Assembly: GCF_006345805.1 (NCBI RefSeq)
Contig: NC_043007.1
Coordinates: 68,634,001 to 68,698,000, forward strand
Length of the DNA stretch: 64,000 nt
Reading direction: 5' to 3'
Source of the DNA: Octopus sinensis
Taxonomy: Eukaryota
Part shown: positions 2,113 to 57,365 of the stretch, piece by piece
Layout: the number at the start of each line of letters is the position of its first letter
How positions within the stretch are numbered: the stretch's first letter is position 1
The notes under the pieces: model-generated
The model's input: only the letters and a program-made list of their open reading frames with translations
Databases searched by the model: none
Told to the model about the DNA's origin: nothing
Program-made: the position numbers and the translations under genes

Positions 2113-2190
2113 GCGGTACATATGTTTCGGGCCTTTATTAGACAGATTCATAACAAATCATAATGTATGTCTGTGGCCTTCTTCAGCCGC
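2113..2190 (-). ncRNA. Type I hammerhead ribozyme, left arm
   Basis: Minus strand: GCGG-CTGAAGA-A-GGCC...GGCCC-GAAAC-ATAT-GTA-CCGC. Confidence 0.8.
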
Positions 2191-4515
2191 GCACAACAGC
2201 TTCCACAAGGACATGTGTACTTCCTAAATTCTTGGTTGGGGATGCAAATCTTCTCGTTCCCGTACGACATAATGCGGCAGCAGCATCGAATTGAATCGTC
2301 CATCTCTTTCCTCTCTCAATGTAGAATGAGGAAACTTGGATGTGAGGTAATGTAAATAAATAATAAATACGTATATAGAGGTGAAGATGGAGGGGCGAGA
2401 GTTCGGGACGAGGGATAAAAAATATAAAATAATATAAAATAATATGAAAATGTAGAGGATAAAGATATAAAGAGTTGTAAGGAGATGTAAAGGGGGTATA
2501 AAGAAATATAAAGAAATATAAATAAATGTAAAGGCATAATGTTGTAAAGTAAAAATAGAAATGGAAATAATAGTAAAAGAAGTAAAAGAACCTGATAAAA
2601 ACATGATAAAAGTGTAAAAGAATGTAAAGATAAGGGATGTATAGAGGTCGCGGACCCAGCATGGTGGTCAGGAGATGATAAAAACTTAGTTGTAGAACTG
2701 TCAGTAAATTAACGGTTTCGTCGTAAATCAGAGCTGATGAGAGTTTAATCTGGTTCCTTGAATTAAATGGACTTTCAGTACATACATATCATCATGGGTA
2801 CATACACCCACATACACGCGTACATATACGTCTCCAAGTCTATAAGCAAACACACGCACTCGCGTGTAAAACACGTACATAAACACACACGCACCACACG
2901 CACGCGCGCACACACACATACATACAACAGAATAGCCGCATATTAGACGGACATTACGCGCGTACACGCTCACATGTATATACGCGTGCCCCTCACTACA
3001 TACGTACACGTATATGCCCACGTCTCTAGGTTAGGTATAAGATATAAAGGATGTGTATAAGAACATATGTAAAGAATCCCGTACTCATGTTAATACGCGC
3101 ACGCACACACGGCTGTGTGTCCGTATGTGCGTGCACATATATATATTCACATACACACACAGAGACACACGCGCCATGGGTATAGTCATAAGATATCGAA
3201 GTATGCATGTACATATACGCGCGCGCATATGTATGTATGCGCATACACACGTACGCGGACGCTCGGATACTCAAAAAAGGGATCCATAGGAAAGTAAATA
3301 AACATATATAGAGGTGTAAAGCGATTTTCTTATTTTATACTGTATTTTTTATTTCTAATCTTTACCCTACCCTCATTTACCCTAATTTATCGCTTTACAC
3401 CTCTATATATGTTTATTACTTCCTATGGATCCGCTTTTTGAGTATCCGAGCGTCCGCGTACGTGTGTATGCGCATACATACATATGCGCGCGCGTATATG
3501 TACATGCATACTTCGATATCTTATGACTATACCCATGGGCGCGTGTGTCTCTGTGTGTGTATGTGAATATATATATGTGCACGCACATACGGACACACAG
3601 CCGTGTGTGCGTGCGCGTATTAACATGAGTACGGGATTCTTTACATATGTTCTTATACACATCCTTTAATATCTTATACCTAGACCTAGAGGACGTGGGA
3701 TATACGTGTACGTATGTAGTGAGGGGCGCGCGTATATACATGTGAGCGTGTACGCGCGTAATGTCCGTCTATATATGCGGCTATTCTGTTGTAGTATGTG
3801 TGTGTGTTGGCGCGTGCGTGTGGGTGCGTTGTGTGTTTATGTACGTGTTTACACGCGAGTGCGTGTGTTTGCTTATAGACTTGGAGACGTATATGTACGC
3901 GTGTATGTGGGTGTATGTACCCATGATGATATGTATGTACTGAAAGTCCATTTAATTCAAGGAACCAGATTAAACTCTCATCAGCTCTGATTTACGACGA
4001 AACCGTTAATTTACTGACAGTTCTACAACTAAGTTTTATCAATCTCCTGACCACCATGCTGGGTCCGCGACCTCTATACATCCCTTATCTTTACATTCTT
4101 TTACACTTTTATCATGTTTTTATCAGGTTCTTTACTTCTTTTACTATTATTTCCATTTCTATTTTTACTTACAACATTATGCTTTACATTTATTTATATT
4201 TCTTTATATTCTTTTACCCCATTTACATCTCCTTACACTCTTTATATCTTTATCCTCTACATTTTTATATTATTTTATATTATTTTATATTTTTATCCCT
4301 CGTCCCGAACTCTCGCCCCTCCATCTTCACCTCTATATACGTATTTATTTATTTACATTACCTCAACATCCAAGTTTCCTCATTCTACATTGAGAGAGGA
4401 AAGAGATGACGATTCAATTCGATGCTGCTGCCGCATTATGTCGTACGGGAACGAGAGATTTGCATCCCCAACAAGATTTAGGAAGTAAAACATGTCCTTG
4501 TGGAAGCTGTTGTGC

Positions 4516-4593
4516 GCGGCTGAAGAAGGCCACAGACATACATTATGATTTGTTATGGAATTGTCTTAATAAAGGCCGAAACATATGTACCGC
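4516..4593 (+). ncRNA. Type I hammerhead ribozyme, right arm
   Basis: Stem I GCGG/CCGC, core CTGAAGA(+A), stem II GGCC/GGCC with inner AGACA/TGTCT, GAAA, palindromic stem III ACATATGT, GUA site (predicted cut after 4589). Confidence 0.85.
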
Positions 4594-56400: not shown

Positions 56401-56682
56401 GAAAACCTTCTAAAAATCCACACCCTGACTTAACGGATGTAAGCTATGCGTGGCTGAAAGAAATCAGATTCTTTTCAAATCTAAGAGTTCTAGTTCTGAA
56501 ATTTTCATAAACATATGGCTAAGATCCTGTTGGAAGTACCACCTTCTGCAGATTGAGCAGCTGCACCGCAGACTCTTGACCATTATCTTTTCCCGGAACT
56601 GTGCATTATATATATATATATATATATATAATATATATATATATATATAGAGAGAGAGAGAGAGAGAGAGAGAGAGGGTTAT

Positions 56683-57365
56683 GAGAGGTAATGGTGTCAA
56701 TAAGACCCAAAGGTGTCAGGTAATGCTGAGTAAGTGCTATGGAGAGACCACAGTTAAGTTCCAGGTTCGGTGATTATGCGAATAAGAAGTCCAACGTAGG
56801 TCATATATCAGCATGTGTATATATAAAAAACTTTTTTCCAACGAGATAAAAAAACAAAGCTGGGAAGATTTTAGAACATTTATGAATAGAAGGTCTTACA
56901 GCTGTTTCCAGGATATTTATTATATCCCTTCATCTGGGACGTGTGAGAAAGTGATTAAGCAATAGTTAATTTAGATCAGATATGAAATAGAGAGTGAAGT
57001 GGAAGAATGAAAATTGATGTGAGAATTTCAGGGACATTGCATTTGTAGATCCATTATTTAAGCAGAATTGGATACATATAAGATTCCAATAACTTGTGAG
57101 TAAATTCCAATAGTATATAAATTGGTCATTCCAAGTATAGAGTTTATACACTGTGCTATTGAATCGAGGATTTTATTTAATGTGACCTAAAAGTAGGAAA
57201 TGTATTTGTCAGGTCAAATCGAAAACAGAAAGAGAGGAATAAAGAAAAGAAAAAAAAATTCCTTATTCGCATAATCACCGAACCTGGAGCTTAACTATGG
57301 TCTATCCATAGTAGTTATTCATCATTACCTGAAACATTTGGGTCTTACTGACACCATTACCTCTC
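56683..57365 (-). mobile_element. Fold-back element with 104-bp inverted ends and an internal hammerhead (56893-56940, minus)
   Basis: 56683-56786 is the reverse complement of 57262-57365. Minus strand GTCC-CAGATGA-AGGGATA-TAATAAA-TATCCTG-GAAAC-AGCT-GTA-AGAC (U4 changed to A). Confidence 0.8.

Follow-up and report, generated by a model that had tools for sequence, protein, structure and literature searches.

We identified 18 hammerhead ribozyme motifs, carried on 15 insertions from 14 multicopy repeat families, in a 64-kb stretch of the Octopus sinensis genome (the window; G000:C11:68634001-68698000). It is highly probable that these motifs are type I hammerheads, three families of which follow coding sequence of Penelope-like elements (PLEs), while three others are retrozymes that were likely copied into TA/AT-rich repeats by PLE proteins acting in trans. 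The class of element has already been published, and the locus is unusually crowded but ordinary.

The window is microsatellite-rich, has a GC content of 35%, and belongs to a genome of 2.72 Gb. A strict type I descriptor (CTGANGA / stem II / GAAA / stem III / UH / stem I) matched the window six times, compared with a mean of 0.0 and a maximum of 0 across 60 global and 60 local dinucleotide shuffles. A scored descriptor, which tolerates one core mismatch and whose weights were chosen once the window motifs were known, gave ten matches at the threshold score of at least 8, against 0.0 in 25 local shuffles. Both the excess over dinucleotide shuffles and the central claim of the original prediction, that more than 15 hammerhead motifs from several families occupy these 64 kb, were therefore borne out. 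Since the motifs at 2186/4520, 30571/30605 and 45662/46229 each form part of one insertion, the 18 motifs count as 15 insertions. Fifteen sites were used as queries against the genome itself and then aligned with their relatives; 42264, the only predicted site without a genome search of its own, was placed in family E through its 80% match to 23593.

Seven copies in the window carry the type I core order (CUGANGA, GAAA, UH) with every core residue and all three stems, namely 2186(-), 4520(+), 20359(+), 30571(-), in which stem II is just 2 bp, 33438(-), 45662(+) and 46229(+). Two further motifs are near-intact, 30605(+), with a mismatch in stem I, and 30847(+), so that the window holds seven to nine complete cores. 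Decayed or variant members of hammerhead families are found at 11507, 23597, 36157, 37133, 42298, 42539, 46900 and 56936. Seventeen of the 18 sites originally predicted lie in type I hammerhead families. The remaining site, 50255, was rejected because neither the window copy nor any of three relatives has a CTGANGA-like box directly 5' of the GAAA, and a probable motif at 47027(+) had been overlooked. The site at 20354 had been called decayed; its core, at 20359(+), is complete and carries a UU triplet. Just 3' of the rejected site, a degenerate hammerhead-like string at 50215-50250(-) has a CTGAAAA box in three relatives and is too decayed to call.

Alignments of relatives agree with the prediction that cores are conserved within families while stems vary from one family to another. 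The expectation that each family consensus would keep the core held for most families and failed for E (A6U in 14/14 relatives) and H (U4C in 9/11), two families that are themselves non-canonical. Stem III is self-complementary, as predicted, with perfect or near-perfect homodimers for 10 of the 11 motifs tried and a weak one for family G; when motifs were folded singly, several did no better than shuffles. Rfam returned no hammerhead match in the window at gathering score, and none on the family C and F sites at E<=10; among the matches listed for the window were microRNA-type hits only, on microsatellite hairpins. Added together, the 14 family searches of the genome gave about 14,900 first-look candidates, a figure that should not be read as a copy number. 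These comparisons support a large genomic population of putative ribozyme retroelements, comprising many families and invisible to Rfam. The under-annotated population that had been predicted is thus real in its diversity and in being missed by Rfam, and it is not new, as PMC4209133 and PMC7229834 report such families.

The window is not typical of the genome. It contains seven descriptor-positive insertions. Twenty 10-kb stretches chosen arbitrarily contain three (against a shuffle background of 0.6) and the adjacent 60 kb one, so that the window exceeds the density of these 260 kb about 7-fold (7 vs 4 insertions; binomial p 0.002) and overstates the genome. From the three matches in 200 kb there appear to be about 40,000 motifs genome-wide, a rough estimate with a 95% range of 8,000-120,000. 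The density could mean that the locus is a genuine hot spot for the insertion of PLE-type elements, or a trap for them, for example open chromatin or a piRNA-cluster-like region, as opposed to a statistical tail. The excess itself speaks for this rather unlikely explanation, as does the fact that TA tracts are only 1.6-fold denser in the window than in the comparison DNA. However, the window was selected for density among about 42,000 windows, so that chance crowding is possible, and the same window served to tune the descriptor. With 1-2.8 insertions expected per 64 kb, chance alone would bring between about 4 and 1000 genome windows to seven, and the adjacent 60 kb has a single insertion. 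The local crowding probably represents one extreme in the distribution of a common repeat class, here in TA-rich DNA, and not a functional cluster.

Families A, B2 and G carry putative hammerheads that, judged from the sequence, follow RT/GIY-YIG coding sequence of PLEs. Matches to PLE proteins were found upstream on the same strand in 4/24 copies of family A, in 7/19 of B2 (three of which are one duplicated locus) and in 1/20 of the G copies examined, where the hammerhead lies 3' of GIY-YIG sequence. The family A insertion (2031..4638, left limit approximate) is a two-armed inverted copy of a PLE 3' region with hammerheads at 2186-2117(-) and 4520-4589(+); its tail is confined to the left arm and its right arm ends in a TA repeat. 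A separate 857-bp palindrome (2930-3786) occupies the centre of this insertion. The first box is CTGANGA in 19/19 family A relatives. An 842-aa ORF at L091:3283-5808 lies between family A hammerheads; it has a YRDD motif, a linker rich in Cys, which suggests a Neptune-like element, and a GIY-YIG-like C-terminus. This ORF has 211 homologues, nearly all without a name, and GIY-YIG, RVT_1 or HTH_animal is found in some members of its Atlas neighbours (0.96-0.98). Searches of Pfam and PDB with the ORF gave no match, so its identity as a PLE rests on motifs read by eye and on the Atlas neighbours.

Family G, which we take to be Poseidon-like, is represented by a PLE 3' end at 37060..37190(-), with U4C in the core at 37133 and a shortened stem III; 12/14 relatives have a CTGANGA first box. 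The family B2 copy (30742..30936, +) comprises a hammerhead at 30847-30892 and a truncated inverted arm. Its core, TTGAAAA, has a U3-A8 pair, and because 13/14 relatives retain CTGANGA, this pair arose in the window copy. U3-A8 pairing is both natural and active according to PMC3088659 and PMC4209133.

Family B is present as a short two-armed inverted insertion between TA repeats (30434..30671), with hammerheads at 30571-30542(-) and 30605-30634(+) and a tail of about 70 nt on one arm. An apparent period of 280-320 nt was traced to a nested inverted copy in L083 and is an artefact, and a PLE fragment near the family (one match, in L072) lies beyond a TA tract and was judged a neighbour. Across L072-L088, many arms begin at the same point, about 10 bases 5' of the core and directly after a TTCTAG that resembles a splice acceptor, usually with an extra T. 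Such a common start may reflect an RNA whose 5' end is fixed, or splicing of the kind known from Drosophila Penelope.

The three non-coding families, C, F and D, have a different organization. The family C copy (33178..33458, -) is a partial copy of a circularly permuted 354-nt unit that ends at the tail site, with its hammerhead at 33438-33405, and family F (35898..36245, -) has a unit of about 360 nt, with a hammerhead at 36157-36121 that carries G12C. In both families the sequence 3' of the ribozyme recurs 5' of it, at periods of 354 and about 360 nt respectively, and the hammerheads are of canonical type, with a 6-bp stem I and a 4-bp stem II. The CTGANGA box is present in 18/19 relatives of C and 8/14 of F. 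Upstream PLE coding sequence on the same strand was found in none of 23 C copies and none of 16 F copies. Elsewhere in the window, a 212-bp palindromic repeat family (57476-57687) has arms that resemble the part of the C unit 3' of the ribozyme (76% over 70 nt).

Family D forms a 1.5-unit tandem array between TA repeats (45647..46510, +) that ends at unit position 195. Its two hammerheads (45662-45747 and 46229-46315, +) lie 568 nt apart from cut to cut; the family unit is about 593 nt, with cut-to-cut distances of 587-596 nt in the array at L191, and is repeated head to tail in up to ten full units per array. The longest ATG-started frame in a unit is 36 aa. As C, F and D are non-coding, tandem or permuted, and carry one type I hammerhead each, they agree with the sequence definition of non-LTR retrozymes. 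A further published trait of non-LTR retrozymes was seen in D in the window and in most of the 25 arrays, and was not seen in the C and F copies examined. Two PLE matches near family D (L193) lie beyond the TA tract and were judged to be neighbours, and an autonomous partner was not found for C, D or F. The stretch L206:1-760, next to a D array, is a divergent relative of D (74%) that carries a hammerhead of its own and likewise runs into a TA repeat close to unit position 195.

Folded as a circle, seven D units of other arrays gave z-scores of -2.9 to -8.1 in the sense and -1.9 to -3.6 in the antisense orientation, and the window's own unit folds weakly (z -2.5). Contigs from four sequencing runs, presumed to be RNA, covered 26-29 of 30 bins of the D unit, with the head-to-tail join present in three of the four; this join fits tandem DNA as well as it fits a circle and is no evidence either way. 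In runs X1 and X2, a deep contig on 45652-45682 matches the D pre-ribozyme region and first core box and then continues with 255 different bases, as a related element with another stem II.

The remaining families are E, H, J, K, L, M and N. Family L (20353..20413, +) combines its complete core with U.U at the base of stem II and a predicted cut after 20408, and 10/12 relatives have a CTGANGA first box. The family E copy at 23505..23718(+) is flanked by TA repeats and has the core CTGTAGA (A6U) at 23597 with stem III ACGT. A second, divergent and decayed copy at 42191..42327(-) has the core CTGTTGA at 42298, and other divergent copies carry CTGTTGA or CTGTGGA (e.g., L101:4487, 5466). Family E may have a variant core that is tolerated, or it may have multiplied with a ribozyme that no longer works; family H, with its U4C, presents a similar case. 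In family H (56850..56975, -), the decayed core at 56936 reads CAGATGA, the family mostly has CCGATGA, and stem III is ACAGCTGT. Family K (11499..11583, +) is decayed, with GAAG as its 3' core and a damaged stem III; its relatives read CTGATGA...GAAACAGCTGTA, and CTGATGA was read from the alignment in 9/9 of them. The family J insertion (42420..42570, -) is an old copy with an internal deletion, a core at 42539 and a predicted cut position at 42466, and CTGANGA is kept in 5/11 relatives. Family M (46810..46906, -) is decayed, with C3A at 46900 and CTGANGA in 3/3 relatives (n=3). Family N (47021..47071, +) has G12A in its motif at 47027 and a canonical first box in 0/3 relatives (n=3), and since each of these has a different defect, 47027 is a probable decayed hammerhead and not a sure one.

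Upstream PLE coding sequence on the same strand was absent from the copies of E (16), H (14), J (17) and K (11), and no linked ORF was found within 1.8 kb for B, E, H, J or K. It is by resemblance only that B, E, H, J, K, L, M and N would be assigned to PLE ends. A decayed PLE GIY-YIG fragment is present at 56228-56491(+), with no hammerhead recognised 3' of it; as a partner for family H it was rejected, being on the opposite strand and judged a neighbour.

We compared 25 D loci, 20 of them picked from the match list for multi-unit arrays and five further ones; because the loci are best matches to the window copy, young copies are over-represented among them. Four arm ends beyond the stretch analysed were excluded. 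All 32 of the arm ends run into TA repeats, with 21/32 at unit positions 191-204, 9/32 at 292-305 and two elsewhere. Seven of the eight two-armed D insertions have one end of each class, meaning that the tail is on one arm only; the eighth ends at 195 and 257. In family C the ends fall at +174 and +228, the two arms often having one each. Families A and B share the one-sided tail, so that the inverted 5'-truncated arm, the one-sided tail and the AT-rich target are present in A, B, C and D. Tails measure about 55 nt in C, about 70 nt in B and 100-110 nt in D. There was no enrichment of 5' ends at the cut site; one insertion (L207) has such an end. In that insertion, an inverted D copy folds back exactly at the predicted cut site (L207:2733).

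These end patterns closely resemble those described for PLEs. PLE insertions with an inverted 5'-truncated copy and a one-sided tail are documented (PMC8557442, Craig et al., 2021, including the legend of its Fig. 2), and two internal RT start sites explain the PLE end pattern (PMC11167929; Frangieh et al., 2024). As in the PLEs of these accounts, we observed 5' truncation, partial tandems, an inverted 5'-truncated copy, a tail at one end and AT-rich or (TA)n targets. Unlike those PLEs, the insertions studied here have longer tails (55-110 vs 30-40 nt reported), some of them on ORF-less elements. Term searches of the main texts of PMC7229834 and of bioRxiv 10.64898/2026.07.22.740005 turned up no inverted arms or one-sided tails on retrozyme arrays, and our literature search, which covered main-text material, found no account of a PLE insertion signature on such arrays.

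We propose, as a serious if tentative possibility, that C, D and F were inserted into TA repeats as ready-made multimers by a PLE RT travelling repeatedly around an RNA circle that the ribozyme had produced. The two fixed 3' ends would then be internal priming sites. By analogy with published PLE biochemistry, the PLE endonuclease would nick AT-rich DNA, and the RT would start at two internal RNA sites to leave two fixed 3' ends. The palindromic stem III may allow two hammerheads to pair and cut as a dimer, and tandem D transcripts could in this way be cut into monomers of about 593 nt and then possibly ligated to circles; little activity would be expected of single copies or of copies on opposite strands. 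If its template is circular or an uncut multimer, the RT may read through the cut site and write an array in one event. Lunse et al. reportedly dealt with hammerhead dimer cleavage in 2017. Ribozyme cleavage is unnecessary for insertion in vitro (PMC11167929), which weakens the claim that cutting drives mobility.

Arrays of family D could instead have grown in place, with a PLE leaving one terminal unit that was then multiplied by unequal crossover as satellite DNA; a local-amplification route for arrays is suggested in bioRxiv 10.64898/2026.07.22.740005. We consider this improbable. The 101 full D units do diverge less within arrays (0.7%) than on average between them (2.7%), and some arrays are long, as growth in place would have it. 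However, divergence stays flat over separations of one to six units, which fits the writing of a whole array in one step, and is higher at seven to eight (n=6). Several units can be present in each of the two arms of an inverted insertion (L203, L208), partial units with variable 5' ends join fixed 3' ends, and C copies exceeding one unit in length carry a single hammerhead. Units are often no closer to each other within an array than to the nearest different array, and variants that are private to one array and present throughout it number from 0 to 3 per array, so that a single circular template is not demonstrated. Insertion of multimers by a PLE RT remains the reading that we prefer for these arrays.

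It had also been predicted that, if the region is intronic, sense-strand hammerheads could cut nascent RNA. We regard such cutting, or a regulation, of a host pre-mRNA as very unlikely. Full cores persist in seven to nine motifs, and the two tandem D copies could conceivably form a dimer if the plus strand were transcribed. Against this, Pfam found nothing above curated cut-offs, and hence no supported exon, among the 246 complex window frames of at least 45 aa. This search is weak for short exons, and weak in general because the window's transposase-like ORFs also scored nothing: the frames at 21016-21864 and 47940-48606, which are presumably broken Tc1/mariner-like transposases, had no Pfam match. 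The strands are split 9:9 overall and 6:3 among near-intact motifs, and every motif lies within a multicopy mobile family. With neither a host exon nor a strand bias found, intron cutting is unsupported. According to PMC4209133, minimal PLE hammerheads that stand alone have weak or no activity as monomers, with no activity in the case tested there. That the motifs are chance matches in AT-rich low-complexity DNA, as the blank Rfam result, the shuffle-like folds of several single motifs and the failure of 50255 might suggest, can be dismissed, since it is refuted by the empty shuffles and by families whose members share cores while stems differ between families.

The motifs fit well with those in the literature. 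Minimal type I hammerheads with a palindromic stem III occur in the pseudo-LTRs of metazoan PLEs, in thousands per genome (PMC4209133; Cervera and De la Pena, 2014). Like them, the motifs described here have a long or variable stem II, a short stem I, often an extra base after A9 and a palindromic stem III; they likewise belong to many families per genome, mostly as truncated single copies, include a U3-A8 variant and form opposite-strand pairs within about 100-700 bp. Unlike in the available accounts in PMC4209133, which do not name cephalopods, A6U and U4C cores are family-wide in E and H. More than 6000 motifs in 16 families are reported from a coral, and mussel retrozyme circles of 350-390 nt, for which PLEs were proposed as the mobiliser, match C and F in size (PMC7229834; Cervera and De la Pena, 2020). 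A PLE origin of retrozymes is supported by phylogeny, retrozymes are depleted in introns, and one of nine tested dimers was active (bioRxiv 10.64898/2026.07.22.740005; Li, Clavereau and Pollet, 2026).

Like metazoan non-LTR retrozymes, C, D and F consist of tandem or permuted units that lack coding sequence, have a single type I hammerhead per unit and are low in GC. At 593 nt, D falls inside the 51-972 bp range of bioRxiv 10.64898/2026.07.22.740005 and differs from known retrozymes in its PLE-style hammerhead with a stem II of about 70 nt. Circular RNA has been demonstrated for published retrozyme families, whereas the families here are known from DNA. Among cephalopods, 235 Rfam hammerhead loci are reported in the giant squid (PMC6962438), and 30 recently active Penelope families are reported in the common octopus, in a source whose available text does not contain the word ribozyme (PMC13282606). 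A literature search that extended to sources other than Repbase and most subscription journals found no cephalopod account of such families beyond the giant squid loci.

What this locus chiefly offers is a pair of families, C and D, that can serve as precise substrates in tests of retrozyme mobilisation by PLEs, together with the two family-wide core variants. Both families have young copies and priming sites predicted to the base, and an uninterrupted PLE ORF resides in the same genome, which makes this mobilisation testable in the published in vitro PLE assay. Such work would bear on which enzyme mobilises animal retrozymes and on whether the template is a circle. If the proposed route is true, these insertions would provide direct genomic evidence, with base-level coordinates, for a partnership between retrozymes and PLEs that has so far been inferred.
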